NCBI GenBank assembly: GCA_041736225.1
Contig: JBGSUG010000073.1
Span: 1-42,322, forward strand
Reading direction: 5' to 3'
Source of the DNA: Candidatus Aminicenantales bacterium
GTDB taxonomy: Bacteria > Acidobacteriota > Aminicenantia > Aminicenantales > Saccharicenantaceae
Length of the DNA: 42,322 nucleotides
Below the pieces are notes generated by a model, which was not told where the DNA came from, did not search any database, and was given only the letters and a program-made list of their open reading frames with translations. The position numbers were made by a program, and so were the translations under genes. Of the stretch, positions 5,566 through 34,600 are shown piece after piece. Within the stretch, counting starts at the first letter, position 1. Each line of letters starts with the position of its first letter.

Positions 5566-7239
5566 TCATGTCGAAGCCTCCCAATCGCGGATCGCCAGAA
5601 TGGCTTCTTCCGGCGTCCGGACCGTCCTCAAGGCTTGCATGAGCGACCTGTTCTGGGAGGCCCGGCTGGCCAGGCCCAGGAGCTTGACCTGGGTGTCGGG
5701 GGTTCGGGCCGGTGACAGGATCAGGAAAACGATCTCGATGGGCTTGTCCGTCGCGACGTCGATGACCCCCTCCCGCGTCAATCCCAGGGCGATGACCGGA
5801 GCGGCCAAGCCCTCCACCCGGACATGGGGGAACGCCACGCCCTCGTTGAAGAACGTCGAGCTCTGGGTTTCCCGTTCCATGACGGATTTGTAAAGGCCCT
5901 CCCCGGCTTCCCTTCCGATGGTCGAGGCCAGGGTCCTGAGAACGGTCTCCTTCTCGACCGCCGCCTCCCAGACCACGACATGCTGCGGAGAAGTCAGCAA
6001 ACTGAGACGGGGGCGGTCGACCGGCCGGATCCCCGATCCCGCCGCCGGCTCCATGGAGGAGGGTGGGGCTTCCTCCGGCAGTCCGGGCCCTGGCCGGACG
6101 GAGACCGGCCGGTCCTCGCTCGTATCGAGGACGATGACCGTGACCTTCCGGGCGTTCCTGACGAGGTCCTCGACGACCGTCTTGTTCCGGCCGATCCTTT
6201 TCCAGAGGGGCCGGGGAAGGGCCCGGCCCATAACCATGTGACCGACCCGGTATTCCGCGGCGAACCGGAGGAGGGTGTCGGCGACGTCTTCGCCCTTGTA
6301 GGTGAAGACCATGGCCCCCAGCTGCTTGGCCAGGGTCAGCGTGTCCGAGAGGTGGCGTTGGACCTGGGCGTCGATGACCGTCGCCTCCTCGGCCGGCGTC
6401 TGGACGTAGACGGCATACCAGTTCCGGTTGAGCTTCCCCGCCAGGCGCGAGCCGTATCGCAGGAGCTTCTCGCTGTTCGGCCCGTGCGAGCTCAGGCAGA
6501 CCATGACCTGATCCGACGAGGCGCTCTCTTCCGTCCCCAGGTCTTCGCGGCGGCGCAGGTCGATCTGCGCCGCGAGCTCGCGGAGCGTCAGCTCCCGGAG
6601 CTTCTCCAGGTTGGACTTCGTGAAAAAGTTGGCCATCGCGGTCTCGATGCGCTCGGCCGGGTAGATCTTACCTTCTTCGAGGCGCTTCCGGAGGTCCGCG
6701 GTCGCCAGATCGACATCGACGATCTCGTCCGCTTCGGCCAGAACGGAATCCGGCAGACGCTCGCGGACCTTGACTCCGACGGCCGTCTCCACGATGTTGT
6801 AGAGGCTTTCGAGATGCTGGACGTTGAGCGTGCTGATGACGTGGATCCCCGCCGCCAGGATGTCCTGGACGTCCTCGTACCTCTTCGCGTTCCGGCTGCC
6901 CGGGATGTTGGTGTGGGCGAGCTCGTCGATGAGGGCGACTTGCGGCTTGCGCGCGATGACCGCCTCCGCGTCCATCTCCTCGATCGCTATGCCGTGGTAT
7001 TCCTGAGCGCGGCGGGGAACGACTTCCAGTCCCTCGGCGAGCCGGGCGATCTCCGCCCGGCCGTGCGTTTCGAGAAGGCCGATGACGACGTCGATGCCTT
7101 CGCTTTTTAGCCGTCGGCCTTCCTGGAGCATCTGATAGGTCTTACCGACGCCGGCCGAGTAACCGAGGTAGATCTTCAGCCGCCCCCGCCGGGACCGGCG
7201 GATCATCCGGAGGAAAGCGTCGGCCTTATCTTCCGGCAT
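5566..7239 (-). CDS. KdpD sensor half (KdpD N-terminal domain + USP domain) fused to a PTS EIIA type-2 (PtsN-like) domain; no histidine-kinase core
   Basis: The N-terminus GRLKIYLGYSAGVGKTYQML...LIDELAHTN...STLNVQHLES is the KdpD N-terminal domain. The middle segment VMVCLSSHGPNSEKLLRYGSRLA...HMVMG is USP-like. The C-terminus FFNEGVAFPHVRVEGL...IEIVFLILSP is the EIIA-2 fold with the conserved phosphorylatable His. No HisKA/HATPase motifs are present. The gene overlaps the kdpC stop by 14 nt. Confidence 0.85.
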   Translation of the reverse strand: MPEDKADAFLRMIRRSRRGRLKIYLGYSAGVGKTYQMLQEGRRLKSEGIDVVIGLLETHGRAEIARLAEGLEVVPRRAQEYHGIAIEEMDAEAVIARKPQVALIDELAHTNIPGSRNAKRYEDVQDILAAGIHVISTLNVQHLESLYNIVETAVGVKVRERLPDSVLAEADEIVDVDLATADLRKRLEEGKIYPAERIETAMANFFTKSNLEKLRELTLRELAAQIDLRRREDLGTEESASSDQVMVCLSSHGPNSEKLLRYGSRLAGKLNRNWYAVYVQTPAEEATVIDAQVQRHLSDTLTLAKQLGAMVFTYKGEDVADTLLRFAAEYRVGHMVMGRALPRPLWKRIGRNKTVVEDLVRNARKVTVIVLDTSEDRPVSVRPGPGLPEEAPPSSMEPAAGSGIRPVDRPRLSLLTSPQHVVVWEAAVEKETVLRTLASTIGREAGEGLYKSVMERETQSSTFFNEGVAFPHVRVEGLAAPVIALGLTREGVIDVATDKPIEIVFLILSPARTPDTQVKLLGLASRASQNRSLMQALRTVRTPEEAILAIRDWEAST

Positions 7240-7819
7240 CGAGGACTCCGTCCAGAGCGAGGTTCAGACGCAAGACGTTCACCCGGGGCTCGCCCAGGAT
7301 GCCCAGCGTGCGGCCTTCGGTGCAGGCCTCGATCCCGGCCAGGACGTCGGCCTCCGGGAGCCCCCGGGCTCGAGAGACCCGGCGGGCCTGGATCCGGGCG
7401 TTCTCCGGAGAGATGTGGGGATCGAGGCCGCTCGCCGAAGCCGTGACGGCATCGGCCGGTACCGTCGTCGCGGCATCGAGACGGTTCTCCTCGCGGTATG
7501 CGGCGATCCGATCCCGGACGGTTTCCGCGAGGGCCTTCGACAAGGGCCCGAGATTCGTCCCCCCGGACCGGCCGCCGTCGTATCCTTGGCCCGCGGCCGA
7601 AGGACGGGGGTGAAAATACTCCGGGGACGAGAACTTCAGGCCGATCAGACTCGACCCGGCGACGACCCCGTCGTGCACGATGAGCGAACCATTGGCCCGG
7701 CCGGGAAAAAGACCCTGGGCGAGGACCCAGGCGGCGAGCGGATAGAGGCCGCACAGGAGGACGGCCAGGACGGCCACGGCCAGGAACGACCTTCGGAGTT
7801 CGATGAGCCAACTCTTCAT
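7226..7819 (-). CDS. kdpC: Potassium-transporting ATPase subunit C
   Basis: It has one N-terminal TM helix and KdpC blocks (GSSLIG, ASGLDPHISPENA, VNVLRLNLALD). It sits in the kdpFABC order. Confidence 0.95.
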   Translation of the reverse strand: MKSWLIELRRSFLAVAVLAVLLCGLYPLAAWVLAQGLFPGRANGSLIVHDGVVAGSSLIGLKFSSPEYFHPRPSAAGQGYDGGRSGGTNLGPLSKALAETVRDRIAAYREENRLDAATTVPADAVTASASGLDPHISPENARIQARRVSRARGLPEADVLAGIEACTEGRTLGILGEPRVNVLRLNLALDGVLDAGR

Positions 7820-7840
7820 TTCCGTGCGGCCTTCTCCATG

Positions 7841-9868
7841 TTAAACGAGATGCAGGGCATTGACAACGACATCGATGAGCTTGATCCCCGGGAAGGGCGC
7901 GATGAGCCCGCCCAGGCCGTAGATCAGGAGATTGCGCCGGAGAAGGGCCGACGCCCCCAAGGGCCGGAAGCGCACGCCGCGGAGCGCCAGAGGGACCAGG
8001 GCGATGATGATCAGGGCGTTGAATATGACCGCGCTCAGGATGGCGCTCGTCGGCGAACGGAGCCCCATGACGTTCAGGGGCGCGATGACCGGGAAGACGC
8101 CGACCAGCAGGGCCGGTATGATGGCGAAGTACTTGGCCACGTCGTTGGCGATGCTGAAGGTCGTCAGCGCGCCGCGGGTGATGAGCATCTGCTTGCCGAT
8201 CTCGACGACCTCGATGAGCTTCGTCGGATTGGAGTCGAGATCGACCATGTTGCCGGCCTCCTTGGCGGCCTGGGTCCCCGTATTCATCGCCACCCCGACG
8301 TCCGCCTGGGCCAGAGCGGGAGCGTCGTTAGTGCCGTCGCCGGTCATGGCCACGAGGTGGCCGGCCGCCTGCTCTTTCCGGATGAGCGTCAGCTTGTCTT
8401 CCGGCTTGGCCTCGGCGACGAAATCGTCGACCCCGGCTTCCCGGGCGATCGCCGCCGCGGTGAGGGGGTTGTCGCCGGTGATCATGACCGTCTTGATCCC
8501 CATGGCCCGGAACCGTTCGAACCGGTCTTTCAAGCCGCCCTTGACGATATCCTTGAGATGGACGACGCCCAGGACCCTGGTTCCGTCGGCCACGAGAAGC
8601 GGCGTCCCTCCCTGGAGAGCCACTTGGTTGACCGTATCGTCGACCTCGAGGGGGACGCTCCCGCCGGTGAATTCCCGGATCGCGGCCGGGGCCCCTTTCC
8701 TGATGCGATGCGCCTCGAAGTCCACGCCGCTCATGCGGGTCTGGGCCGAGAAGGCGATGAAGACGGCTCCGGGCATGCCGGCGATGGAGCTCCCGCGCAG
8801 TCCGTATTTCTTCGCCAGGACGACGACGCTCCGCCCTTCGGGCGTTTCGTCGGCCAGGGAGGCGAGCCGGGCGGAGTCGGCCAGCTCCTCGACCGTGACC
8901 CCCGGCGCCGGGAGAAAAGCCGCGGCCTGGCGGTCGCCCAGGGTGATCGTCCCGGTCTTGTCGAGGAGCAGCACGTCCACATCGCCGGCGGCTTCGACGG
9001 CGCGCCCGCTCATGGCCAGGACGTTCTTCTGGACCATGCGGTCGATGCCGGCGATCCCGATGGCGTTCAGCAGGCCGCCGATCGTCGTCGGAATGAGGCA
9101 GACGAGGAGTGCGACGAGAACGGTCACGGTGAAGCGGACGCCGGAATATCCGCCGAAGGGCCTCAGGGACATGATGACGACGAGAAAGATGATCGTCAGG
9201 GCCGAGAGCAGGATGGTCAGAGCGATCTCGTTGGGTGTCTTTTGGCGCCGGGCCCCCTCGACCAGGCCGATCATCCGGTCGAGGAAGCTCGTCCCCGGGT
9301 CGGCCGTGACCCGGACCTTGATCTGGTCGGACAGGACCCGCGTCCCGCCGGTGACCGCGCTCCGGTCGCCGCCGGCCTCGCGGATGACCGGAGCGGATTC
9401 GCCGGTGATGGCGGACTCGTCCACCATGGCCGCACCCTCGACGATCTCCCCGTCGGCCGGGATGATCTCGCGGGCGGAGATGACGACCAGGTCGCCCTTG
9501 CGCAGCCGCTCCGAGGGGACCGACTCGACCGATCCGTCGGTCCGGAGGAGGCGGGCCGTCGTGGAAGCGCGCGTCTTGCGCAGCTCGTCGGCCTGGGCCT
9601 TCCCCCGGCCTTCGGCCATCGCCTCGGCGAAATTGGCGAACAGGACCGTGAACCACAGCCAAAGGGCCACTTGGAGCCCGAATCCGGCCGGCTCACCCTT
9701 CGATCTCATCAGCAGGCCGGCCGTCGTCAGCAGGGCCCCGACCTCGGTGACGAAGATGACGGGGTTCTTGAGCAGGTGCGACGGATTAAGCTTTTTAAAG
9801 GCCTCTAGCGACGCCCGGCCGACGATGGCTTTATCGAAAAGGGAGCGGTTGCGGGAGCGCACGGTCAT
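7841..9868 (-). CDS. kdpB: Potassium-transporting P-type ATPase subunit B
   Basis: The P-type ATPase motifs [20 protein letters not shown] and ITGES are present, along with the KdpB-type N-terminus. Confidence 0.98.
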
Positions 9869-9874
9869 CCTCGC

Positions 9875-11578
9875 TCAATACAGGATCCCCGATCCCGTCA
9901 TCAGGAAATGTTCGACGATGGGGCCGAGGGCCAGGGCAGGTAGAAAGGTCAAGGCGCCGACGACGAGAACGGTCCCGATAAGGATGATGACGAAGGTCGG
10001 GCCGCTGGCGGGAAAGCTCGCTTCGCTCGGCGGCAGGGCCCTTTTTCCCGCCAAGCTTCCGGCCAGGGCCAGGACCGGCAAGATGATCAGGAACCGCCCG
10101 AAGAGCATGGCCAGGGCCAGTGATATGTTGTAAGGGACCGTATCGCCGTTTAGGCCGGCGAAGGCGCTGCCGTTGTTGCCCGCGGTCGAGGAGAAGGCGT
10201 AGAGGATCTCGCTCAGCCCGTGCGGCCCCGCGTTGGCGGGACCGGCCAGGCCCCAGCGGCTCACCGCGGCCCAGGCGGCGAAGCCGAGGATACAGAAGAC
10301 CGGGACGAGTATGGCCAGCACGGAGACCTTGACGTCGAAAGCCTCGATCTTCTTGCCCATGTACTCCGGGGTCCGTCCGACCATCAGTCCGGTGAGAAAG
10401 ACGGCCAGGACGACGAAGAGGAGCATCCCGTAGAGTCCCGAGCCGACGCCGCCGAAGACCACTTCGCCGAGCTGGATGTCGAACAGCGGGACCAGGCCGC
10501 CGAGCGGGGTGAACGAATCGTGCATGGCGTTGACGGCCCCGCAGGAGGCCGCCGTGGTGACGGTGGCGAAAAGACTCGAGCCCGCGACGCCGAACCGGAC
10601 CTCCTTGCCCTCCATGTTGCCCGCGGCCGGATCGATACCCAGGGCTTGCAGGCGCGGATTGCCGGCGGTTTCCGCTTTCCAGCAGACCAGGACCGCGGCC
10701 AGAAAGAGCACGGCCATGGCGCTCCAGACGGCCCAGCCGTGCTTCTGGTTCCTGACCTTCCGCCCGAGGTAGTAGGTCAGGCCGCTGGGGATGAGGAAGA
10801 TCGCGAGCATCTGGACGAAGTTCGAAAGGGGAGTGGGGTTCTCGTAAGGATGGGCGGCGTTGGCGTTGAAGAAGCCGCCGCCGTTGGTCCCCAGCATCTT
10901 GATGGCCGCCTGGGAGGCCACCGGCCCCTGGGCGATGGTCTGAGCGGACCCGGTCTCGACGTACGGTTTGAAGTTCTGGATCGTCCCCTGCGAGGTCAGG
11001 AAGAGCGATAAGACGATCGCAAGGGGCAGAAGCAGATAGATGTTGATCCGGACCAGGTCGACCCAGAAGTTCCCCAGGGTTTTGGCGGAATGCCGGGAGA
11101 TGCCCCTGACGAGCGCCGCCGCCGCGGCGATCCCAGCGGCCGCCGAGACGAAATTCTGGAAGACGAGCCCGACCATCTGCGAAAAATAGGACAGGGTCGT
11201 TTCGCCCCCGTAGTTCTGCCAGTCCGTATTGGACGCGAAGCTGGCCGCGGTATTGAAAGCCAGGTCCGGCCGGACGGGCCCGAAACCTCGAGGGTTGAAC
11301 GGGAGGAGATGCTGGAGCCGGAGCACCGCGTACGTGAACAGAAGCCCGGCCAGGCTGAAAAGGAGCAGGGACCCCGCATAGCGCCGCCAATCCTGCTCTT
11401 TTCGCGGGTCGACGCCGAGGACCCTATAAAGGAGCCGTTCGACCGGCTTGGCCGGGCGGTCGAGCCAAGTCCGTCCCTCGGGCTCGAGGACCCGGATGAG
11501 ATAGAGCCCCAGCGGCTTCGTGACGGTGAACAGGACAACCATGAAGAGGATCAGTTGAAGCCAGCCGGAGAGTTCCAT
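9875..11578 (-). CDS. kdpA: Potassium-transporting ATPase subunit A (K+ channel-like subunit)
   Basis: The 567-aa polytopic protein has KdpA selectivity-filter-like blocks (NTDWQNYGGE, GTNGGGFFNAN, TAASCGAVN, SSTAGNNGSAF). Confidence 0.97.
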   Translation of the reverse strand: MELSGWLQLILFMVVLFTVTKPLGLYLIRVLEPEGRTWLDRPAKPVERLLYRVLGVDPRKEQDWRRYAGSLLLFSLAGLLFTYAVLRLQHLLPFNPRGFGPVRPDLAFNTAASFASNTDWQNYGGETTLSYFSQMVGLVFQNFVSAAAGIAAAAALVRGISRHSAKTLGNFWVDLVRINIYLLLPLAIVLSLFLTSQGTIQNFKPYVETGSAQTIAQGPVASQAAIKMLGTNGGGFFNANAAHPYENPTPLSNFVQMLAIFLIPSGLTYYLGRKVRNQKHGWAVWSAMAVLFLAAVLVCWKAETAGNPRLQALGIDPAAGNMEGKEVRFGVAGSSLFATVTTAASCGAVNAMHDSFTPLGGLVPLFDIQLGEVVFGGVGSGLYGMLLFVVLAVFLTGLMVGRTPEYMGKKIEAFDVKVSVLAILVPVFCILGFAAWAAVSRWGLAGPANAGPHGLSEILYAFSSTAGNNGSAFAGLNGDTVPYNISLALAMLFGRFLIILPVLALAGSLAGKRALPPSEASFPASGPTFVIILIGTVLVVGALTFLPALALGPIVEHFLMTGSGILY

Positions 11579-11591
11579 CGTCGTCGCCTTG

Positions 11592-11675
11592 TCAGAATTT
11601 TTCGGGCCGCAGGATGCTCCACAGCAGGTAGCCGATGAGCAGGATCCCGATGACGAATCCCAGGATGTTCGCCAT
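11592..11675 (-). CDS. kdpF: Potassium-transporting ATPase subunit F (27-aa single-TM peptide)
   Basis: The peptide is MANILGFVIGILLIGYLLWSILRPEKF. It starts 2 nt after the kinase stop and ends 13 nt before kdpA. The tail of track ORF 11592..12047 contains it. Confidence 0.75.
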   Translation of the reverse strand: MANILGFVIGILLIGYLLWSILRPEKF

Positions 11676-11677
11676 CG

Positions 11678-13522
11678 TCAGGACCTTTCGGCCTTTTCTT
11701 TCGGGAACAGGTCGACCCGTCTCAGGGTGAATGAGAAGCTGGCGCCTTTTCCCTCGCCGCTCTCGACGCCCACGGTGCCGCCGTGGGCTTCGACGATCTC
11801 CTTGACGATGGCCAGCCCGAGCCCGGCGCCCGTTTCGTTCTGACGGCCGGGAACCCGGAAGAAGGGCTCGAAGACCCGGGAGAGGAAGGCCGCGGGGATG
11901 CCCTCGCCCGTGTCGGAGACTCTGAAGCGGACCCAAGCCTCGTCGGCCTCTGCGGTCAGCGCGATCCGGCCGCCGGGCGAGGTGTGTTTGAGCGCGTTCG
12001 AGAGGAGGTTGCCGAAGACATGGCCGATCCGGGTCGTGTCCACCCAAACTTCGGGGAGGTCGGGCGGCACGTCCGCATGCAGGGTCACGCCACGGTCCTG
12101 GGCCTCCCTGCGGACAGATTCGACGGCATCCATGACGATCGACCGCGGGGAAAGGGCCCGGAATTCCATCCGGGCCTTGCCCGATTCGAACCGGCTCAGG
12201 TCCAGGAGACTGTCGAGGATCTCATGGAGGCGGTCGCTGTCTTCGCGGGCGGACACGAGGAGCTCCGCCTGCTTCTCGTTGAGGGCGCCGACCTTCTCGC
12301 CCAGGAGCAGATGGATGGCCATGCGCACCGATGTGAGGGGCGTGTTCAGCTGATGGGACACGGTCCGGACGACGCCCCTCTTGATCTCGTCCTGCTGCCG
12401 CAGCTGGGTGACGTCCTCGAGGACGAGGATCACTCCGGTCGTCAGGCGTTCGTTGTCCAGGATCGGGACCGCCTCGGGGCGGTAGTAGCGCTCTTCGCCC
12501 CGGACGAATTGCTGAATGGGCCTCTGCCCCTCGAGGAACGCGGCCCGGCTCTCCTGACGCGCGTCGCGGATGAGATCGGCCATCCAGCCGAACGGCAGGT
12601 CGCCGACGGAGACCCCTGGCTTCAACCCGAAGACGGTCCGCGCCGATTCCGTGGCGATCTCGACCCGCCCCTCCATGTCGACGACCGCGATCGCATCGGG
12701 AAGGCTGTCGAAGGCCTGCTGTGTGGCCCTTTGGATACGAAGCAGCTTGGCCTGGTCCGTCCGCCGGAACTCCCGCAGGCTCGCGGCCATGTCGTTAAAG
12801 GCTCCCGACAGGTGCCCGATCTCGTCCCGGGAATCGCCGGCCACGACGAGGTCCAGGTTGCCGCGCCGGATCTCGTCCGCCGACCGGATGAGGCTGTGGA
12901 TCGGCCGGAGGATCCATCTCCTGGTGAAGATGAGGAAGACGACGGCCAACGCCGTCCCGATGGACAGAAGGGCATACATTCGCCTTCTGGCGGACGCGGC
13001 GATCCGGCGGGCGCGGTCGTTGGCATCGCTCATGTTCCGCTGGTTCAGCCGGAGGATCTCGTCGGCTTGGTTCTTGATCTGGTCGAACAGCGGCAGGAGA
13101 GACGTGAAATAGCCCTGGGCGCGGAGCTCCGTGGGCCGGGCCGGATCGACGACGCTGTCCAATTGGACTTCGTAACGCCTGAAAAGATCCTGCAGCCGGG
13201 CGGCCTTGTCCCCCTCGGCCGGGAGGGTGATGTTGCTGAGCTCGGCTTGAAGGGACACCTCGAAAGCGGCCCGATTGTCGCGGACGAGCTCGTTCCCCTC
13301 CCGCGTGTGGCCGAGAAGGACGAACAGGGTCCCGCTGTCCATTCGCTCCAGGGCTTCCTTCATCTGTTGGCAGGCAATGACGCTCCGGTAGTTCTCGCGC
13401 AGGATGACGTCGATCGAAACACCCAATCTGGAAAGATGAAGGATGCTCTGGGTTCCGATGACGAGGATGATGATCAGGAGCGCGCTGAATCCCAGGGAGA
13501 TCTTTTGGCGAAGACCGAGCAT
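11678..13522 (-). CDS. Membrane sensor histidine kinase (four-helix-bundle-like sensor, HAMP, PAS, HisKA, HATPase_c), first gene of the kdp transcription unit
   Basis: It has two TM segments and a HAMP region (RRWILRPIHSLIRSADEIRRGNLD...). The H-box is VSHQLNTPLTSV. The N and G boxes are LLSNALKHT, DTGEGIP and GAGLGLAIV. Its architecture is unrelated to the KdpD C-terminal half. Confidence 0.9.
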   Translation of the reverse strand: MLGLRQKISLGFSALLIIILVIGTQSILHLSRLGVSIDVILRENYRSVIACQQMKEALERMDSGTLFVLLGHTREGNELVRDNRAAFEVSLQAELSNITLPAEGDKAARLQDLFRRYEVQLDSVVDPARPTELRAQGYFTSLLPLFDQIKNQADEILRLNQRNMSDANDRARRIAASARRRMYALLSIGTALAVVFLIFTRRWILRPIHSLIRSADEIRRGNLDLVVAGDSRDEIGHLSGAFNDMAASLREFRRTDQAKLLRIQRATQQAFDSLPDAIAVVDMEGRVEIATESARTVFGLKPGVSVGDLPFGWMADLIRDARQESRAAFLEGQRPIQQFVRGEERYYRPEAVPILDNERLTTGVILVLEDVTQLRQQDEIKRGVVRTVSHQLNTPLTSVRMAIHLLLGEKVGALNEKQAELLVSAREDSDRLHEILDSLLDLSRFESGKARMEFRALSPRSIVMDAVESVRREAQDRGVTLHADVPPDLPEVWVDTTRIGHVFGNLLSNALKHTSPGGRIALTAEADEAWVRFRVSDTGEGIPAAFLSRVFEPFFRVPGRQNETGAGLGLAIVKEIVEAHGGTVGVESGEGKGASFSFTLRRVDLFPKEKAERS

Positions 13523-13549
13523 GATGTTCTTTCCTTCCGCTCCTGATCA

Positions 13550-13565
13550 AGCAAGACTCATGCCA
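13550..13565 (-). promoter_or_regulatory. Sigma54 (-24/-12) promoter upstream of the kinase-kdpFABC unit
   Basis: The minus strand reads TGGCAT-GAGTC-TTGCT, which has the same spacing as the TGGCAC-N5-TTGCW consensus. The inferred +1 is about 17 nt upstream of the kinase ATG, and GGAAGGAAAG lies between them as a ribosome-binding site. Confidence 0.6.
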
Positions 13566-13678
13566 GAGCAGACCTCTCGTATCGAATAGATAATGAATGA
13601 GTTGGTCAGATGGCCGCGGATGGGGGGCTTGCATTCATCAAGGGATGGCCCGATGGTCCATTGAAATACGCAAGGCTC

Positions 13679-15046
13679 TTAGATGCCGTATTCTTTTCGC
13701 CGCCGCCAGAGGGTGGCTTGATCGATGCCGAGAACGGCGGCCGCTTCCTGAAGGGACCTGGTGTTGGCCAGGACCCGACGGATATGGGATTCCTCGATCT
13801 TGTCGAGGCTGACGGCGTCGCCGATCCTGACTTCGGCTCCGCCGGGAGCGAGGTTCGCCGGGAGGCATTCCGGGCCAATGCGGTCGGCCGGGCAGAGGAT
13901 CGCGGCGCGCTCGATGGCGTTGCTCAGTTCCCGGACGTTCCCCGGCCAGGAATGAGCGGCGAGCGCCCGGAGCGCGTCGTCCTTGAATCCCAGGAACGAA
14001 CGGTGGTTGTTCCGGGCGTGAAAGGCCAGCAGGCGTTCCGCCAGGACGGGCAGGTCTTCCGATCTCTCCCGGAGAGGAGGGATCTCGATCGGGATGACGC
14101 TGAGCCGGAAATAGAGGTCCTCCCGGAACCGGCCCGCCTTGACGGCGTCAACCAGGTTCGTGTTGGTGGCGGCGATCAACCGCACGTCCGCCTTCCGCGT
14201 GACGGTGTCGCCGACGCGCTCGAATTCCCGCTCCTGGACGAAACGCAGGAGCTTCGGCTGGAGGGGTAGCGGCAGGTCGCCGATCTCGTCCAGGAAGAGG
14301 GTGCCGCCGTCGGTCACAGCGATCCGGCCCGGGTTGTCGCGGACGGCCCCCGTGAAGGCGCCCTTCGCGTGACCGAAAAGCTCGCTTTCCAGGAGCTCGG
14401 GCGGGAACGAAGGGCAAGAGATGAGGCTGAACGGCTTGGCCGCCCTGGCGCTCCATGAATGGATGGCCCGGGCCAGGACGGTCTTGCCCGTGCCGCTCTC
14501 CCCGCAGAGGAGGATCGTGGCTTCGGATATGGCGGCTTGGCGCGCCACGGCCACGGCTCTCTGCATCCGAGGGCTCGCGCTCGAGAAATCGACTTCGGGA
14601 TGCTGGCGCCCGAGGTCCTCTTGCAGGGACGCGACCTTCTGCTCCAGGAGCCGGACCTCGAACACCTTGTGCACCGACAGGGAGATCTGGGCGGGGGTGA
14701 ACGGCTTGGGGATGTAATCGGTGGCCCCCCGCCGGATGGCCTCGACGGCCGTGTCGATGGAGGCGTAAGCGGTGATGACGATGATCTTGAGCCAGGGCGA
14801 GGCGGCCAGAAGGGCCGGGATGAGATCGAGGCCGTCGTCCGTGCCCAGCCGGAGATCCACGAAAGCGAGCTCGAAGGACCTGCGCGAGGCCTCCGCCAGG
14901 GCATCCTGGAAGTTGCTGACAGCCGTGACTTTATGTCCTTCCGTCTCGAGAGCGATGGTTAGGGTCTTCCGGATATTGATCTCGTCGTCGACGACGAGGA
15001 CATGGAGGGGGGCATCGACGATCGGGCCGCTCTTTTCAGGTCCCAT
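13679..15046 (-). CDS. Sigma54-dependent response regulator (NtrC family: receiver + AAA+ activator + Fis-type HTH)
   Basis: The receiver begins HVLVVDDEINIRKTL. The AAA+ domain has Walker A GESGTGKT, GAFTGA, ESELFGH and RFREDLYFRL. The C-terminal HTH is SLQEAAAVLGIDQATLWRRRKEYGI. An alternative TTG start at 15070 overlaps the flavodoxin stop. Confidence 0.92.
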   Translation of the reverse strand: MGPEKSGPIVDAPLHVLVVDDEINIRKTLTIALETEGHKVTAVSNFQDALAEASRRSFELAFVDLRLGTDDGLDLIPALLAASPWLKIIVITAYASIDTAVEAIRRGATDYIPKPFTPAQISLSVHKVFEVRLLEQKVASLQEDLGRQHPEVDFSSASPRMQRAVAVARQAAISEATILLCGESGTGKTVLARAIHSWSARAAKPFSLISCPSFPPELLESELFGHAKGAFTGAVRDNPGRIAVTDGGTLFLDEIGDLPLPLQPKLLRFVQEREFERVGDTVTRKADVRLIAATNTNLVDAVKAGRFREDLYFRLSVIPIEIPPLRERSEDLPVLAERLLAFHARNNHRSFLGFKDDALRALAAHSWPGNVRELSNAIERAAILCPADRIGPECLPANLAPGGAEVRIGDAVSLDKIEESHIRRVLANTRSLQEAAAVLGIDQATLWRRRKEYGI

Positions 15047-15066
15047 TCGATTATCCGTCTCGGGCC

Positions 15067-15546
15067 TCAAGCAGAAAAGAGCTTCTTCGTCAGGTCGGCC
15101 AGGTTCTTGGCGTGGGATTCGCAGCAGTCGAGCGACCTCTTGTCGGGCCGGCCGATCGAGACCGGGCCGTAGTGGTCGAACTGGTGGTTCCCGCGGACGA
15201 CCATGCCGTGAATGAGCAGCGCCTGGAGGATATCGAGGACCGTCGTCTCGTTGCCGCCGCCGATATTGGCCGAGGAGGTGAAAGCCCCGCCGACCTTACC
15301 CCGGAGCTTTCCGTGATACTTGACGCTCTCGTCGAGGAGCTTTTTCAGCTCCCAGGACATCGTGCCGTAGTACGTCGGGGACCCGAGGACGATGCAGTCG
15401 TAGCCGAGGAGGTCGGCCGGGGCCGTGTCCTCGACCGTCTTGAGATCCACTGCGAGGCCTTGCGATTCGAGGACCTCGGCGATACGGGCCGCCATACTCT
15501 TGGTATTTCCCGTCCGGGAATAATAGGAAACCAGGGCTTTGGGCAT
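15067..15546 (-). CDS. Flavodoxin-fold protein (WrbA/NAD(P)H-quinone oxidoreductase-like)
   Basis: The FMN-binding loop is MPKALVSYYSRTGNTKSMA, and GSPTYYGTMSWELKKLLD is also present. The start was trimmed to the ATG preceded by GGAGGA. Confidence 0.85.
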   Translation of the reverse strand: MPKALVSYYSRTGNTKSMAARIAEVLESQGLAVDLKTVEDTAPADLLGYDCIVLGSPTYYGTMSWELKKLLDESVKYHGKLRGKVGGAFTSSANIGGGNETTVLDILQALLIHGMVVRGNHQFDHYGPVSIGRPDKRSLDCCESHAKNLADLTKKLFSA

Positions 15547-15570
15547 CGCGTTCCTCCTGGGACGCCGCCG

Positions 15571-15599
15571 ATTATGACCAAGGCGGAGCCCTAAGTCAA
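15571..15599 (-). promoter_or_regulatory. Sigma70-type promoter for the flavodoxin/response-regulator unit
   Basis: The minus strand reads TTGACT-17 nt-CATAAT, followed by GGAGGA and the flavodoxin ATG. Confidence 0.45.
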
Positions 15600-15677
15600 A
15601 CCGGCAGCAAACAGGATTGAACACATCGCTCCAAAATAGTAGCATCGGTCGATCGCGACGGAAGTGAGGAGATCGAG

Positions 15678-18909: not shown

Positions 18910-20460
18910 ATGGGACTGAGACAGGTGAAACGCCCGATGAACCCTCTTTCCGACGCCCGGTTCGATATCGATCCGGGAGAGCTCAAGGAAAGATCTGTGC
19001 GGAGCGGCGCCATCACCTTGATAGACCAGGGATTTGCCACGCTCATCCACATGGTCTCGGTCGTCGTCCTGGCCCGCCTGCTGACGCCCGAGGATTACGG
19101 GACCGTCATGATGGTCACGGCCATCACCGGGTTCATCGAGCTCTTCCGGGAACTGGGCTTATCGAGCGCTACGGTCCGGACACGCGGCATCACCCATGAC
19201 CAGGTCAGCAACCTCTTCTGGATCAACGTCGGCCTCGGCGCCGCCATCACCCTGATCATCGCCGCGTCCGGTCCCATCCTGGCCTGGTTCTACCACAAGC
19301 CGGAGTTGACCCTGGTCGCAGCCGGCATCTCGTTGACCTCCATCTTGAACAGTCTGGGGACCCAGCACGGCGCCCTGATCAATCGGGACATGCGTTTTGC
19401 CACCATGGCCGTCATTCGTGTCTCGGCCCTGCTCGCGGGGTTCCTCGCCGCCCTCGCCGTGGCCCTGTCCGGAGGGACCTATTGGGCGCTCGTCGCGAGC
19501 GCCGTGGTCACCGCGGTTTGGCATTCAGCCGGGAATTGGATCGCCTCCGGTTTCCGTCCCGGACGGTACAAAAAGAGGGTCGGACTTCGATCGCTCGTCC
19601 GCTTCGGCGCCACTGTCGCCGGTGCCGATATCGTCACTTACATCCACCGGAACGCGGACAATGTCCTGATCGGACGGGCTTGGGGAGCAGGGGAGCTGGG
19701 GCTCTACAACAAGGCCTACTCCCTGCTCATGCTGCCGGTCTCTAATTTGAGATACCCCCTCAACCGGGTCGCCTTCCCAGCCTTGAGCCGGCTGCAGGAG
19801 GACCCGAAGGCTTTCCGGGCCTATTTCACAAAGTACTGTGCGCTGCTCTCGTTCGTCACCATGCCTGTTGTGACCTATCTGTTCGCCTCCTCGGAACATG
19901 TCATCAAGCTGTTCTTGGGCCCGCGCTGGATCGGGGCGTCCGATCTGTTCAGCATCCTCGCGCTTGTCGCTTTCATCCAGGCGCCGGCCGGCTTGAAATC
20001 GATCGTCCAAACCTCGCTGGGCCGGGGGGGCAGGCTTTTTCGCCTGTCGCTCATCACCGCGGTCGCCGCAGTCGCCTCATTTTTCATCGGCCTGCCCTGG
20101 GGCGCCCGGGGTGTGGCCATCGGCTATGTCATCAGCACGTACCTTGTCCTCCATCCGACCTTGGTCTATGCCTTCCGCGATACGCCGATACGCCCGTCCG
20201 ATTTCTATCGATCGATCCTGAAACCTACCGTCGCCAGCCTCTCGATGGCGGCGGCGCTCGTGTTCATCGAAGGCCGATTCACGGGGTTAGGGGACGCCGC
20301 TCTCCTCGTTCTCATGGTCCCGGCGGGGGCTTTGATCTACCTGGGCGTCTTTGCTCTCTTGCCGAAAGGAAGACAAGAGATCGCCGGCTATCTGGGATAT
20401 GTGAAAATACTCTGGCACGGAGCCCTGAAAGCGTTCTCCAGGATCAGGGGGAGGTCATGA
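18910..20460 (+). CDS. Polysaccharide/O-antigen flippase of the MOP superfamily (Wzx-like lipopolysaccharide biosynthesis protein)
   Basis: The 516-aa polytopic protein has an N-terminus (GAITLIDQGFATLIHMVSVVVLARLLTPEDYG...) typical of the Polysacc_synt family, and about 12-14 TM helices. Confidence 0.85.
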   Translation: MGLRQVKRPMNPLSDARFDIDPGELKERSVRSGAITLIDQGFATLIHMVSVVVLARLLTPEDYGTVMMVTAITGFIELFRELGLSSATVRTRGITHDQVSNLFWINVGLGAAITLIIAASGPILAWFYHKPELTLVAAGISLTSILNSLGTQHGALINRDMRFATMAVIRVSALLAGFLAALAVALSGGTYWALVASAVVTAVWHSAGNWIASGFRPGRYKKRVGLRSLVRFGATVAGADIVTYIHRNADNVLIGRAWGAGELGLYNKAYSLLMLPVSNLRYPLNRVAFPALSRLQEDPKAFRAYFTKYCALLSFVTMPVVTYLFASSEHVIKLFLGPRWIGASDLFSILALVAFIQAPAGLKSIVQTSLGRGGRLFRLSLITAVAAVASFFIGLPWGARGVAIGYVISTYLVLHPTLVYAFRDTPIRPSDFYRSILKPTVASLSMAAALVFIEGRFTGLGDAALLVLMVPAGALIYLGVFALLPKGRQEIAGYLGYVKILWHGALKAFSRIRGRS

Positions 20461-24087: not shown

Positions 24088-24437
24088 AGGGCTCCTTTGG
24101 GCTTTGAGTTCTCCGTCCGGGGATAGATCACCAGGGGAAAACGGGAGGAACAACTATTATACACCCGGCCCGAAATTCGGGGCATTCTCAGGGCAGAGAG
24201 GGGGCGGCGCGGTGGTACGGCTCTGCCAAGAATGGCCGACCGGGGCTGTCGCCGGTGAAAATGTCATATGGGGTCAGTTAGTTACGCGATTTTTAACCCT
24301 TGTTCGACACCTGACGATGAGGCCTCTTATTGCCTGTCTGAAGCCCTAAACCCAGCCCAATTCCGGACCTGCAACGCAAGCGAAGGGGGATTGAAGGGCA
24401 AATCTGAAGATGATATGATACAAAAAAGGGGTAAAAA

Positions 24438-24872
24438 ATGGATGCGTCTAGGAAAATACTCTGGATTCTCACTTTAGGGGTTTTTATCATCGCCTTCGCC
24501 ACCGGAGCCTGCAAGTCAACGACCGGGCCCGACCTCAAAGGCGGCATTCTGACAACCTTTGAGGTCGTCGATGAGCAATACAGTGTTTTCATAACAAATA
24601 CGGAGACGATTGATAAGGTGATGCTCAACTGGAATAAATGGCAAAATGCGGGAGGCATTCCCGCGGGTCGCGTAACCAAGGGACAGGTGTCCTACAACAA
24701 ACCATGGAGTTGGCATATCGATCCTGAGGATATCAGTATCGTCGACGGTGCGATAGAAATACAAGACGGTCGCCCGTCCTATGTTGAGGCAAATGTCGAC
24801 GCCTGGATTAAAAACGTCGTTTATTATTCCCCGTCCGGCGCACAGCTCATATCGGTCAAGGACTACCGCTGA
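24438..24872 (+). CDS. Hypothetical lipoprotein in a low-GC islet
   Basis: The signal peptide has a lipobox (FIIAFATGAC). Codon usage is visibly AT-richer than in neighbouring genes. I do not recognise a family with any confidence. Confidence 0.6.
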   Translation: MDASRKILWILTLGVFIIAFATGACKSTTGPDLKGGILTTFEVVDEQYSVFITNTETIDKVMLNWNKWQNAGGIPAGRVTKGQVSYNKPWSWHIDPEDISIVDGAIEIQDGRPSYVEANVDAWIKNVVYYSPSGAQLISVKDYR

Positions 24873-24908
24873 GAGGCTGTCGCGGCCAGTAGCTAATAAA
24901 AGAATTGG

Positions 24909-24985
24909 TGGGGTGAGTGAGGGGAATCGAACCCCCAACCTTCGGATCCACAGTCCGATGCTCTAACCGTTGAGCTACACTCACC
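24909..24985 (-). tRNA. tRNA-His (anticodon GUG) with encoded G-1 and encoded CCA
   Basis: The reverse complement folds as a cloverleaf: GGUGAGUG acceptor including the extra 5' G, UAGCUCAACGGUUAGAGC D-arm, anticodon loop CUGUGGA, and GGGGGUUCGAUUCCCCU T-arm. The discriminator C pairs with G-1, followed by CCA. Confidence 0.95.
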
Positions 24986-25001
24986 ATAAGGTTGGCGAGG
25001 A

Positions 25002-25030
25002 ATTATCGCATTTGGGGAAAAAGTAGTCAA
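25002..25030 (-). promoter_or_regulatory. Sigma70-type promoter for tRNA-His
   Basis: The minus strand reads TTGACT-17 nt-GATAAT. The inferred +1 is about 10 nt upstream of the mature tRNA 5' end. Confidence 0.55.
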
Positions 25031-25046
25031 ATCAGGGAGGAAACGC

Positions 25047-25086
25047 TAAAAAAGAATGGGGACACGTACCAAGGGTACATGTCCCC
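25047..25086 (-). terminator. Intrinsic terminator of era, built from a palindromic hairpin family copy
   Basis: The minus strand reads GGGGACATGTACC-CTT-GGTACGTGTCCCC (13-bp stem with one U.G pair) followed directly by ATTCTTTTTT. It lies 14 nt past the era stop. Confidence 0.8.
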
Positions 25087-25100
25087 GACCTTTTCCCGAA

Positions 25101-26117
25101 TTAGCCCTTCTGGCCCTCGATGAGGTCGAGGACGTCCTCGGAGTCGCGCCAGTTCTCGCGGACGCGCACTTGAAGCTCCAGATAGACCTTGTGGCCGATG
25201 TATTCCGCGATCTCCTGGCGGGCCTCGATGCCGACCTGCTTGACGAGCGAGCCGTGGCGGCCGATGACGATCTTGCGGTGGTTGTCCTTCTCGACGAAGA
25301 TCGCGGCCCGGATATGCGTCAGGGGCCGCATCTCGCCGGGCTTCTTCCAGTCCGGCTGTTCTTTGTTCTCGATGGACTCGATGTAGACGGCCGTGACGAA
25401 GGGCAGCTCCTGGGTGACGTACTTGAGGATCTTCTCCCGGACGATCTCGGCGAAGAGGAAGCGCTCCGACTGGTCGGAGATCTCCTCGTCGGAGTAAAGC
25501 TTGGGGGCCTCCGGCAGGGCCTCCGTCAGGAGCTTCTCCAGGACGTCGAGGTTGACGCCTTTGAGGGCCGAGATGGGGATGATCTCCCGGAAGGGGAAGA
25601 GGTCCTTGTAGCGGTCGATGATCGGCAGGACCTTGTCCTTGCGGACGATGTCCACCTTGTTGATGAGCAGGAAGACGGGCGTCTTGACCTTGCGCAGGGT
25701 CTCCAGGACGTACTCGTCGCCGTGGCCGAACTTCTCCGTCGCGTCGACGAGCAGGCAGACGAGGTCGGACGTCTCCAGCGCCGAGTAGACGAAGTTCATC
25801 ATCCTCTTGTTGAGCGTGTGGAGCGGCTTGTGGATGCCCGGGTTGTCGACGAAGACGGTCTGGCCCTTGTCCGTCGTCTTGATGCCCAGGATGCTGATCC
25901 GGGTCGTCTGGGGCTTGTCCGAAACGATGGCCACCTTCTGGCCGATCAAGGCGTTGAGCAGGGTCGACTTTCCCGTGTTCGGCCGCCCGACGAGGGCTAC
26001 GTATCCGGTCTTGTAGACCGGCTTCGGGGCCGCCTTCTTCCGGGCGGGCGCCCGCTTCTTCGGGGCGGGCTTGGCCGGCTTTTCCGCCTCTGCGGTTTTC
26101 TTGGTCGTCCTCGGCAT
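25101..26117 (-). CDS. era: GTPase Era with a 37-aa Lys/Ala/Pro-rich N-terminal extension
   Basis: The motifs are GYVALVGRPNTGKSTLLNAL, DTPG-equivalent DNPGIH and NKVD, with a C-terminal KH domain. The ATG at 26117 is preceded by GAGGGGGA. Confidence 0.95.
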   Translation of the reverse strand: MPRTTKKTAEAEKPAKPAPKKRAPARKKAAPKPVYKTGYVALVGRPNTGKSTLLNALIGQKVAIVSDKPQTTRISILGIKTTDKGQTVFVDNPGIHKPLHTLNKRMMNFVYSALETSDLVCLLVDATEKFGHGDEYVLETLRKVKTPVFLLINKVDIVRKDKVLPIIDRYKDLFPFREIIPISALKGVNLDVLEKLLTEALPEAPKLYSDEEISDQSERFLFAEIVREKILKYVTQELPFVTAVYIESIENKEQPDWKKPGEMRPLTHIRAAIFVEKDNHRKIVIGRHGSLVKQVGIEARQEIAEYIGHKVYLELQVRVRENWRDSEDVLDLIEGQKG

Positions 26118-26136
26118 GGTTCCCCCTCGGCCCGCG

Positions 26137-27363
26137 TCAGGCCCTCCGGATCCTCAGCTTCTTGACCTTCTTCTGGTCGACGTCGATGACCTCGAGCGTG
26201 AGGCCCTTGATGGCGAGCGACTCGCCCTTGTGGGGCAGCCGGCCCAGCTCGTGGGTGATGAGCCCGCCGACCGTGATGAAATCGTCCTCGGCCAGCTCGA
26301 CGTCGAACAGCTCCTCGAGCTCCTCGACCTCGGTCGCCCCGGACACGGTGAAGTCGAGGGGCGCGTTCTCGAGGATCATGGCCTCTTCGGTGTCGTACTC
26401 GTCCTGGATCTCGCCGACGATCTCCTCGACGACGTCCTCCATGGTGACGAGGCCGGAGACGCCGCCGTGCTCGTCGACGACGATGGCCAGCTTCTGCTTG
26501 ACCTTCTGGAACTCGCGCAGGAGGTCGGGGACGGGCATGGATTCGGGGACGTAGGCAACGGGCCGGATGAGGGCCTCGATGGGCTGGAGCTTGTGCTTGT
26601 CGTCGGAGTACTCGAGGATGTCCTTGGCCATGACGATCCCGTCCATGTTGTCGAGCCGGTCCTTGTAGACGGGGATCCGCGAGTACTTCTCCTTGATGAT
26701 GAGGTCCTTGAGGTTGTCGATGGTGGCGTCGCGGCGGATGCAGACCATGTTGCTCCGGGACGTCATGACCTCCCGGACGACGGTGTCGCCGAACTCGACG
26801 ACGCTGCGCAGGAGCTCGTCCTCGCCCTTGTCGATGATGCCCTCCTCGGTGGCCTCGTCGATGAAGGTCTCGATCTCCTCGTCGGACGCCTCGCGGTCCG
26901 CCTCGTTCTCCTCCCTCTGCTCCTCGCGCTCCAGGAGGTTGCGGGAGATGACGAGCAGGGGAGAGGCGATGAGCCGGACCGCCGGGAACGCGGGCAGGAA
27001 CATCTTGAGGAGGGCCGGCTTGCCGACGTAGACGAGAAGGCGCGGGACGAGGTCGAGGCAGACGCCGTAGACGGCCAGGGCGGCCAGGAAGAGCCCGATC
27101 GGCCTGATCCCGGCTCCCTGGGAGACGACGAAGCCGTAGACGACCAGGGCCAGGAGGGCGACGATCCTCAGGAACTCGACGGCGAGCAGGGTCTCCTCGA
27201 AGCTGCCGAGGATCCGGGCGCGCTCGGCCTTGTCCCGGTTCTCCAGGAAGCGGCTGAGGGAGATCTTCGAATAGGCGCCGAGGACGATGTGGAGAAGCGA
27301 CAGCAGGAAGGCGGCCAGGAAGGCCAGGCCCAGTCCGATCCAAGTGACGGCCGACGCGGTCAT
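26137..27363 (-). CDS. Hemolysin-family / CorC-type transporter-associated protein (DUF21 membrane domain + CBS pair + CorC_HlyC)
   Basis: It has four N-terminal TM helices and a CBS pair (VREVMTSRSNMV...; PVYKDRLDNMDGIV). The C-terminal transporter-associated domain includes GGLITHELGRLPHKGESL. Confidence 0.9.
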   Translation of the reverse strand: MTASAVTWIGLGLAFLAAFLLSLLHIVLGAYSKISLSRFLENRDKAERARILGSFEETLLAVEFLRIVALLALVVYGFVVSQGAGIRPIGLFLAALAVYGVCLDLVPRLLVYVGKPALLKMFLPAFPAVRLIASPLLVISRNLLEREEQREENEADREASDEEIETFIDEATEEGIIDKGEDELLRSVVEFGDTVVREVMTSRSNMVCIRRDATIDNLKDLIIKEKYSRIPVYKDRLDNMDGIVMAKDILEYSDDKHKLQPIEALIRPVAYVPESMPVPDLLREFQKVKQKLAIVVDEHGGVSGLVTMEDVVEEIVGEIQDEYDTEEAMILENAPLDFTVSGATEVEELEELFDVELAEDDFITVGGLITHELGRLPHKGESLAIKGLTLEVIDVDQKKVKKLRIRRA

Positions 27364-27770
27364 GCCAGGTAGAGCCCGTGGGCCTTCCGCTCCTCTTCCT
27401 CGATGCCGGCGAAGTGGTCGAAGCCGAGAAGATGGAGGTAGCCGTGGATGGCGAGCAGGCGCAGCTCGCGGTCGAGCGAGTGGCCCTTCTCCCGGGCCTG
27501 GCGGTCGGCGACCGGCACGGCGATGACGATGTCGCCCAGATAGTACTTGCCGTCCGGACCCTTCTCCCCGAGAGGGAAGCTGAGGACGTCGGTCGGCCGG
27601 TCTTTCTTCATGAACTTGCGGTTCAGGGTCCGGATGGCTTTGTCGCCGACGAAGGCCAGGGTGACCTCCGGGTCGGCGAGCCGGTACTGCCGGCCGAGGT
27701 CCGCGAGCAGGCGCTCAAACGCTTTTGTCCGGATCCGGTGCTTTTTCTGGCGGTTGATGATCTCGATCAT
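27360..27770 (-). CDS. ybeY: rRNA maturation endoribonuclease YbeY
   Basis: The zinc motif HGYLHLLGFDH is present. Its size and its position in the phoH...era operon fit YbeY. Confidence 0.93.
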   Translation of the reverse strand: MIEIINRQKKHRIRTKAFERLLADLGRQYRLADPEVTLAFVGDKAIRTLNRKFMKKDRPTDVLSFPLGEKGPDGKYYLGDIVIAVPVADRQAREKGHSLDRELRLLAIHGYLHLLGFDHFAGIEEEERKAHGLYLA

Positions 27771-30114: not shown

Positions 30115-30120
30115 GGCGCG

Positions 30121-34038: not shown

Positions 34039-34053
34039 AAGGAAAGAGAGCGC

Positions 34054-34587
34054 ATGTGCGGAGAACATGAAGGCTTCACGCTGTGGTTCACGGGACTGCC
34101 GTGTTCAGGGAAATCGGCCGTCGGCGACAAGGTCGCCGAGATCCTCAAGGAAAGAGGGCATCACGTCGAGAGGCTCGACGGGGACGTGGTCAGGCAGGAC
34201 CTGACCCGCGACCTGGGCTTCTCCAAGAAGGACAGGGACGAGAACATCCGCCGGGTCACGTTCGTGGCCAAGCTCCTGTCGCGCAACGGCGTCGCCGTCT
34301 TGACCTCGTTCATCTCGCCCTACCGGGAGATGCGCGACCGGGCCCGGAAGGAGACGACCCACTTCGTCGAGGTCTACGCCAAGTGCCCGCTCGAGGTCTG
34401 CATCCAGCGCGACGTCAAGGGCATGTACCAGAAGGCCATCCGCGGCGAGATCAAGGAATTCACGGGTATTTCCGATCCCTACGAGGAGCCGACGAACGCC
34501 GAGATCGTCCTCGAGACGGATAAGGAGACGATCGACGAGAGCGTCGAGAAGGTCTTCCGCCGCCTCGGAGAACTGGGCCTGCTCTGA
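34054..34587 (+). CDS. cysC: Adenylyl-sulfate (APS) kinase
   Basis: The P-loop is WFTGLPCSGKSAV, with LDGDVVRQ, ISPYREMR and the size typical of CysC. Confidence 0.95.
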   Translation: MCGEHEGFTLWFTGLPCSGKSAVGDKVAEILKERGHHVERLDGDVVRQDLTRDLGFSKKDRDENIRRVTFVAKLLSRNGVAVLTSFISPYREMRDRARKETTHFVEVYAKCPLEVCIQRDVKGMYQKAIRGEIKEFTGISDPYEEPTNAEIVLETDKETIDESVEKVFRRLGELGLL

Positions 34588-34600
34588 TGGGGGATCTGAT

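Follow-up and report, generated by a model that had tools for sequence, protein, structure and literature searches.

The control of potassium homeostasis by PtsN, a free protein consisting of a type-2 EIIA domain of the phosphotransferase system (PTS), has been known since 2007–2009; its mechanism is debated and seems to be species-dependent. Here we describe a kdp locus in which a PtsN-like EIIA domain is fused to the N-terminal half of KdpD, and which is located on a stretch of 42,322 nucleotides (nt) from Candidatus Aminicenantales bacterium (assembly GCA_041736225.1, contig JBGSUG010000073.1), the whole of which is called the window below. PtsN binds to the transmitter domain of KdpD in Escherichia coli, binding to KdpD has also been described for P. 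putida and rhizobia, and in rhizobia a second ptsN (ptsN2) is found inside the kdp cluster (PMC13104625). In S. fredii it is the GAF domain of KdpD that is bound (PMC9239096). A second activity of KdpD was reported in 2024, as its N-terminal domain is an atypical serine kinase that phosphorylates Ser162 of KdpB and inactivates the pump, residues 1–230 being sufficient for this, and short KdpD/Usp proteins like DgKdpD from Deinococcus geothermalis only perform KdpB phosphorylation and respond to cyclic di-AMP (c-di-AMP) (PMC11018627). Mapping in 2011 showed that DVU3334, a sigma-54 response regulator of Desulfovibrio vulgaris, binds upstream of its own operon (PMC3333781), which comprises kdpFABC, DVU3336 with a K+ sensor domain and UspA but no kinase, and the kinase DVU3335 (PMC3333781; PMC4641369), and the authors took DVU3336 and DVU3335 as a split KdpD (PMC3333781).

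The locus of the window resembles the D. vulgaris operon (DVU3339.1–DVU3334) in having kdpFABC together with a kinase-less KdpD_N/Usp protein, a separate PAS kinase and a sigma-54 NtrC-type regulator in the absence of an OmpR-type KdpE, where the likeness of kinase and regulator to DVU3335 and DVU3334 refers to described domains and gene content and not to a sequence comparison. The first-pass annotation did not know this architecture as a characterised system, which has to be corrected for the combination of sigma-54 regulator, kinase, KdpD_N/Usp protein and kdpFABC, as it had been mapped in D. vulgaris (DVU3334–3339.1). The gene order differs, being kdpFABC-kdpD'-kinase-regulator in D. vulgaris and regulator / kinase-kdpFABC-fusion in the window, and DVU3336 is described with K+ sensor and UspA domains only, whereas the window protein carries the EIIA domain. 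With DgKdpD (PMC11018627) the window protein shares the soluble KdpD_N and Usp domains without transmembrane segments, GAF or DHp/CA, intact Walker A (G-X5-GKT) and Walker B (DE) motifs, the encoding together with kdpFABC and a conserved target Ser in KdpB, but it differs in its additional C-terminal EIIA domain and in the dedicated two-component system for transcription. As in PtsN from E. coli, P. putida and rhizobia, where the connection of EIIA-Ntr-type proteins with Kdp is functional as well as genomic, the EIIA type-2 domain has a phospho-acceptor His; unlike PtsN it is covalently attached to the KdpD N-terminal half, and the hosts of the fusion are non-proteobacterial or Thermodesulfobacteriota. 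From canonical KdpD/KdpE the KdpD_N and Usp domains and the position next to kdpFABC are retained, whereas the KdpD-like protein lacks transmembrane segments, GAF and DHp/CA, the regulator is a sigma-54 enhancer-binding protein and the promoter is of the -24/-12 type; neither an OmpR-type KdpE nor a full-length KdpD (transmembrane segments, GAF, DHp/CA) is present at the locus. Our literature searches found no description of a KdpD_N-Usp-EIIA fusion, and the covalent addition of EIIA to a short KdpD therefore appears to be undescribed as far as we found, while the transcriptional rewiring is of a known kind. The locus had been read before as a Rosetta-stone fusion of the PtsN–KdpD interaction; this stands for the whole proteins, given the PtsN–Kdp link, but not for the mapped domains, as the contact sites of PtsN on KdpD (transmitter, GAF) are absent from the fusion protein. 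The reading to which we lean, with somewhat better than even confidence, is a two-layer control of Kdp that combines sigma-54 transcription with a post-translational brake on KdpB having a phospho-input through EIIA.

Pfam, NCBIfam, AlphaFold/Foldseek and hydropathy all agree with the initial description of the last gene of the unit as encoding KdpD_N, Usp and EIIA type-2 domains without the membrane, GAF and kinase half of KdpD. No Pfam match to HisKA, HATPase, GAF or DUF4118 and no transmembrane segment by hydropathy were found in the protein. Its KdpD_N domain matches the structure of a KdpD N-terminal region (2R8R) with 50% identity, and the C-terminal domain, for which a comparison with EIIA-2 profiles had been proposed, reaches 58.3 bits with PTS_EIIA_2 (PF00359) at a curated cut-off of 27. 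The Pfam Usp model (PF00582) stays below threshold for the window protein and is called in its homologues. Residues 7–371 are matched by the NCBIfam model NF038185 ('KdpD-like non-kinase potassium sensor') over practically its whole length (370 of 373 profile positions) but below its cut-off (358 vs 550 bits), and residues ~243–372 of the AlphaFold model match the USP domain of KdpD from S. aureus (7JI4) with a template modelling score (TM) of 0.86. The linker following this domain varies in length and sequence in the alignment, and its residues 376–408 show a predicted local distance difference test (pLDDT) below 50. Compared by eye, the Usp domain of the window matches what we take to be the c-di-AMP motif of the S. 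aureus Usp domain only partially, and we make no claim from it. The residues that serine-kinase activity was shown to need in 2024 (PMC11018627) are strictly kept, as Walker A (G26-X5-G32-K33-T34 with X5 = YSAGV), Walker B (D105/E106) and R186, which corresponds to R190 in E. coli, are invariant in 76 of 76 fusion sequences. The position of the E. coli W39, which together with R190 coordinates the adenine, is mostly aromatic but rarely Trp (72 Tyr, 2 Phe, 1 His and 1 Trp).

In a sequence search of the PDB the His472 of the EIIA domain is in register with His73 of E. coli PtsN (1A6J), confirming that the phosphorylatable His in GVAFPHVRV had been assigned correctly, and it is invariant in 12 divergent fusions as well as in the 76 genome-derived ones. 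Within the latter also E457, S461, T462 and P471 of the motif RE..ST..PH are invariant and R456 is found in 75 of 76, although the EIIA regions of divergent fusions show only 25–52% identity. The best PDB matches are PtsN proteins by sequence and by structure (2A0J, 1A6J, 3URR, 4GQX), the modelled domain (pLDDT ~85–95) showing TM values of 0.75–0.82 to these four structures. The equivalog cut-offs for PtsN itself were missed (TIGR01419 with 32.2 vs 138.7 bits, PRK10896 with 29.4 vs 221), and a fructose EIIA model scores slightly above the PtsN models with 38.3 bits. Unlike PtsN, which is a free protein of ~150–160 amino acids usually encoded near rpoN, the domain forms the C-terminus of a 557-amino-acid protein. 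Many EIIA-2 domains have a second conserved His, and the corresponding residue 517 (5689..5691) is His in PtsN ('THLH') and in fusions of greater divergence, but Gln in 74 of 76 close relatives.

To follow the suggestion of a survey for such fusions, one genome per GTDB species was scanned with a C-terminal alignment of 4 sequences as query. Among the 471 candidate stretches the best 80 all cover the Usp-linker-EIIA query from end to end, and their hosts are Aminicenantes/Acidobacteriota, Krumholzibacteriia, metagenome-assembled genomes of Thermodesulfobacteriota/'delta proteobacterium', Syntrophorhabdaceae and the cultured Syntrophorhabdus aromaticivorans UI; the fusion is thus present in at least 80 species. 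Public protein data contain hundreds of fusion clusters at 90% identity, the best 120 of which all have both Pfam domains, and clustering at 50% left roughly twelve full-length clusters plus some fragments with the fusion architecture, down to 36–38% identity. Public annotation gives the family wrong names, some entries reading 'PTS sugar transporter subunit IIA' and others 'sensor histidine kinase KdpD'. Frameshifts are found in a few database entries (the L004 locus, P0243), which could be taken as a sign that an error of assembly or gene calling has joined a short kdpD to a separate ptsN-like gene; however, a single in-frame open reading frame (ORF) of ~550–620 amino acids occurs in 75 independent assemblies including that of the isolate S. 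aromaticivorans UI, and both Pfam domains are found in one protein in hundreds of metagenome clusters. The in-frame ORFs in independent assemblies refute such an artefact, to which we assign virtually no probability. P0243 had been considered to carry a different C-terminal domain, which was rejected, as it is a frameshifted fusion.

Gene order was counted in 56 related loci with at least 9 kb of upstream sequence. The order activator-kinase-kdpA-kdpB-kdpC-fusion was found in 46 of them, from Aminicenantes, Krumholzibacteriia, Thermodesulfobacteriota and S. aromaticivorans UI, the others being kinase-kdpABC-fusion (7), kinase-fusion-kdpABC (2) and activator-kdpABC-fusion (1). Also the divergent P0242 (53%), P0255 (45%) and P0281 (38%) have the kinase in front of kdpABC-fusion, and the activator too where the contig is long enough; for P0251, likewise divergent, the activator gene is convergent and located just downstream. 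Around the divergent P0244 (L083, contig ctg77684l, 4300..6137) kdpABC-fusion is found without kinase or activator nearby. This locus contains kdpB, kdpC and a truncated or frameshifted kdpA and is flanked by DUF932, DUF6094, a reverse transcriptase and HsdM. The kdp-fusion unit may belong to a mobile island, or else this locus may be in decay.

Pieces of KdpD were also observed in other arrangements. Six loci from Thermodesulfobacteriota/'delta proteobacterium' (L048, L049, L056, L058, L060, L061) have an extra gene for a 416-amino-acid protein between kdpC and the fusion gene (L048:7755-9005, forward strand), which is not present in the window and encodes Usp, DUF4118 (the four-transmembrane block of KdpD) and GAF without a kinase. 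The product corresponds to the middle, K+-sensing part of canonical KdpD encoded on its own, meaning that KdpD is in pieces in those loci, and its GAF is the type of domain bound by PtsN in S. fredii. P0248 and about 20 other proteins of ~750 amino acids contain two tandem KdpD_N+Usp modules with intact Walker A/B in both and no kinase domain.

A sigma-54 activator in place of KdpE had been noted before and is now backed by a conserved -24/-12 promoter with enhancer sites, which together with kdpF are features additional to those seen at first. The promoter TGGCATGAGTCTTGCT shows one mismatch to the sigma-54 consensus TGGCAC-N5-TTGCW and its 3' end is 27 nt before the kinase ATG; two palindromes (TTGC-N5-GCAA) are located upstream of it, and the activator gene lies further upstream (Table 1). 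In 41 of 53 related loci a -24/-12 element precedes the kinase ATG by 39–51 nt; only one other match occurs in those regions, and most of the remaining loci have a near-match at the same place. TTGC-N5-GCAA sites occur in 47 of these 53 kinase-upstream regions, 29 of which have two or more, compared to a background of 0.15 per 260 nt, and the sites are located ~110–160 nt before the kinase ATG at two preferred distances. Promoter and enhancer sites keep their positions across phyla. Between enhancer sites and promoter, 11 of the 53 loci, but not the window, have an exact IHF-type (integration host factor) WATCAANNNNTTR. Judged from its sequence, the combination of the palindromes with TGGCATGAGTCTTGCT is a textbook enhancer-dependent promoter with kinase-kdpFABC-fusion as one predicted unit and the activator gene outside of it, and the palindromes are presumably bound by the activator. 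The true start of the activator may be an ATG 7 codons downstream of the listed TTG. The kinase consists of a first transmembrane segment, an extracytoplasmic domain of ~145 amino acids resembling a four-helix bundle (with a weak 4HB_MCP match in Pfam), a second transmembrane segment, HAMP, PAS, HisKA and HATPase_c. As stated in the first-pass annotation it is not a KdpD, since its likeness to full-length KdpD is limited to the DHp/CA core (32% over 227 amino acids).

All genes of the locus are on the minus strand and would be transcribed in the order flavodoxin, activator, a gap of 156 nt, kinase, kdpF, kdpA, kdpB, kdpC and fusion gene. kdpF begins 2 nt past the stop codon of the kinase, and a kdpF-like small ORF is found in 41 of 44 related loci. 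The 3' end of kdpC and the start of the fusion gene overlap by 14 nt, and the same overlap is found in 29 related loci and one of 4 nt in 6, a conservation which points to translational coupling of the fusion gene with kdpC and hence with the pump subunits. KdpB carries Glu157/Ser158 in its TGES motif (ITGES), equivalent to E161/S162 in E. coli. Rfam matched no riboswitch (e.g. for c-di-AMP), either in the window or in the region upstream of P0244, the locus without a kinase, and a terminator scan gave nothing better than shuffled sequence. The first-pass annotation described the activator as co-transcribed with a flavodoxin; a place of the flavodoxin in the system was rejected because only two related loci (L003 and L006) have the gene, which from this distribution is a local neighbour outside the conserved system. 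A sigma-70-like element (TTGACT-17-CATAAT, 10/12) is present at 15571..15599 on the minus strand within the 5'-terminal part of the flavodoxin ORF as listed and may be the promoter of the flavodoxin-activator pair; the Pfam match of the flavodoxin begins at residue ~34, so that its true start is probably further downstream.

Table 1: Features of the kdp locus in the window (positions in the window; all on the minus strand).
Feature	Position	Strand	Description
Fusion gene	5566..7239	-	soluble KdpD_N-Usp-linker-EIIA, 557 amino acids
PTS EIIA type-2 domain, PtsN-like	5590..5991	-	residues 417-550; PF00359, E=1.1e-15
His472 codon, putative phospho-acceptor	5824..5826	-	within GVAFPHVRV
Linker	5992..6123	-	residues ~373-416, ~40 residues; Pro/Ala/Ser-rich, disordered, flexible
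Usp-like domain	6124..6513	-	residues ~243-372; NCBIfam profile coverage and Foldseek 7JI4
KdpD N-terminal (atypical serine kinase) domain	6562..7191	-	residues 17-226; Pfam KdpD PF02702, E=2.9e-90
kdpC	7226..7819	-	PF02669
kdpB	7841..9868	-	P-type ATPase; DKTGT at residue 303
kdpA	9875..11578	-	PF03814, E=1.4e-233
kdpF	11592..11675	-	27 amino acids, MANILGFVIGILLIGYLLWSILRPEKF; TIGR02115 31.1 bits vs cut-off 26.85
Membrane histidine kinase	11678..13522	-	two transmembrane segments, HAMP, PAS, HisKA (His390), HATPase_c
Putative sigma-54 -24/-12 promoter	13550..13565	-	TGGCATGAGTCTTGCT; TGGCAT-N5-TTGCT
Enhancer-like palindrome 2	13629..13641	-	TTGATGAATGCAA; 13 nt, 32 bp from palindrome 1
Enhancer-like palindrome 1	13661..13673	-	TTGCGTATTTCAA; 13 nt, family consensus TTGCAAAATGCAA
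NtrC-family sigma-54 activator	13679..15070	-	REC (Asp72), Sigma54_activat (GAFTGA at residue 237), HTH_8
Flavodoxin/WrbA-like ORF	15067..15645	-	Pfam; overlaps activator gene start

According to the two-layer model the membrane kinase would phosphorylate the NtrC-type activator, which on the two palindromes would turn on the sigma-54 promoter (13565..13550) for one transcript comprising kinase-kdpF-kdpA-kdpB-kdpC-fusion. As the kinase gene is part of the activated transcript, the kinase would be under positive feedback. This transcription layer of kinase, activator and sigma-54 is well supported, while the second layer with the fusion protein as KdpB brake is inferred from the domains and the described activity of short KdpD proteins. 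There, the N-terminal Walker A/B domain would act as serine kinase on Ser158 of KdpB and switch the pump off when K+ uptake is unwanted, and the Usp domain and the tethered PtsN-like EIIA would set its activity. Phosphorylation of His472 by an HPr/NPr-type carrier would then allow the brake to read phosphoenolpyruvate (PEP) and the carbon/nitrogen state. Since it is the unphosphorylated form of PtsN that favours Kdp in E. coli and rhizobia, one may conjecture by analogy that unphosphorylated EIIA restrains the brake and/or stimulates the histidine kinase. The invariant serine-kinase and EIIA residues, Glu157-Ser158 of KdpB, the overlap with kdpC and the tethering linker favour the two-layer model, and P0244 with its kdpABC but neither kinase nor activator fits the pump as the constant partner. 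The part of it in which the tethered EIIA puts the KdpB serine kinase, as off-switch of the pump, under the PTS phosphorylation state and thereby allows gating by PEP and carbon/nitrogen within one polypeptide is put forward only tentatively, as we rate its chances below even.

Several observations weigh against this model. The P0244 locus is error-prone and in a mobile-element context, the near-constant co-occurrence with the histidine kinase would suit a role in transcriptional signalling equally well, and the adenine-stacking Trp of E. coli is a Tyr in the window protein. The AlphaFold model, with a predicted template modelling score (pTM) of 0.35 for the whole protein and low confidence for residues 143–241 and the linker, shows no confident contact between EIIA and the kinase domain. 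Moreover, genes for HPr, NPr, EI or HprK were not found in the window or in 1.5 Mb from 90 related loci, which were searched by tblastn with E. coli HPr and NPr and by signature scans for the HPr His15 region, EI and HprK. The window and the same 1.5 Mb also yielded no free PtsN, canonical KdpDE, diadenylate cyclase or rpoN, and the genetic linkage of rpoN and ptsN, which had been used as an argument for this locus, is circumstantial.

With no PTS gene near any of the ~90 loci and PTS-Ntr described mainly for proteobacteria (PMC13104625), the EIIA domain might function outside of any phosphorelay in hosts without PTS donors, as a ligand-binding, dimerisation or docking module. The Gln at the second EIIA-2 His position in 74 of 76 close relatives and the scores far below the PtsN equivalog cut-offs would be in line with this, but invariance of His472 and RE..GST..PH at 25–52% identity is hard to explain without catalysis or phospho-acceptance, and the absence of PTS genes nearby says little, as they are usually unlinked to their regulatory targets. 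We therefore regard a domain without phosphorelay as quite improbable.

The first-pass annotation had suggested that the kinase-less KdpD-EIIA protein acts as an accessory sensor for the HAMP-PAS kinase. This is no longer the default, as the N-terminal domain is now known as a serine kinase (PMC11018627), but it persists as a serious and non-exclusive rival: as part of a 'split KdpD' the fusion protein would mainly be a cytoplasmic co-sensor whose EIIA touches the DHp/CA core of the kinase and tunes the phosphorylation of the activator, which would be compatible with a serine-kinase role. Kinase and fusion occur together in 55 of 56 loci and are adjacent even in the rearranged order kinase-fusion-kdpABC, and the ~40-residue flexible linker would give EIIA the reach to a partner. 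It is the transmitter domain of E. coli KdpD that is bound by PtsN (PMC13104625), and the D. vulgaris authors viewed the KdpD_N/Usp ORF and the kinase as a split kinase (PMC3333781). An analogue would be the free PtsN of E. coli acting on KdpD and PhoR; PtsN is known to target transmitter domains of the HisKA type, and the closest curated families of the window kinase include PhoR, PnpS and WalK types. However, the parts of KdpD bound by PtsN (transmitter, GAF) are not those fused here, strict Walker A/B invariance reflects the need of a kinase and not of a scaffold, and P0244 is a fusion locus without kinase and activator. Short KdpD/Usp proteins furthermore work on KdpB without a histidine kinase (PMC11018627). 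Taken together we consider it unlikely that co-sensing is the main role; in addition to the KdpB brake proposed by the two-layer model, the fusion protein might have a feedback effect on the histidine kinase driving sigma-54 transcription.

Outside the kdp locus, the window has a region of lower G+C content (24153..25101; 0.57 vs ~0.65) with a tRNA (24912..24984, minus strand) and a small ORF with a BP74_N domain (24438..24872, plus strand). It is followed on the minus strand (25101..31068) by the conserved string phoH – 7TM-HD receptor – ybeY – corC/CNNM – era, associated with ribosome maturation and Mg transport. On the plus strand (31515..36965) ATP sulfurylase, a type I phosphodiesterase/sulfatase-like protein and APS kinase are encoded beside a UDP-sugar epimerase and dehydrogenase. 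Together with a polysaccharide flippase at 18910..20460, all these genes hint at the synthesis of a sulfated polysaccharide. The hydrogenase-maturation gene hypD is located at 38278..39612 (minus strand), with no other hyp or hydrogenase gene among the nearby scanned ORFs.

In summary, the locus extends sigma-54-dependent control of kdp from Desulfovibrio to Aminicenantes, Krumholzibacteriia and Syntrophorhabdus, and its description would correct the public mis-naming of the fusion family. The fusion is also a compact construct for in vitro tests, and E. coli KdpB is already known as a substrate of a short KdpD from a different phylum. That the KdpD N-terminal domain works as a serine kinase has been known only since 2024, with few of its input signals established for short KdpD proteins. 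The natural fusion of a PtsN-type player with the KdpD serine kinase suggests that PTS-type signalling may act on the post-translational brake of the pump. If this is true, an overlooked target of PtsN-type proteins would be the serine-kinase arm of KdpD and not only its histidine-kinase arm.

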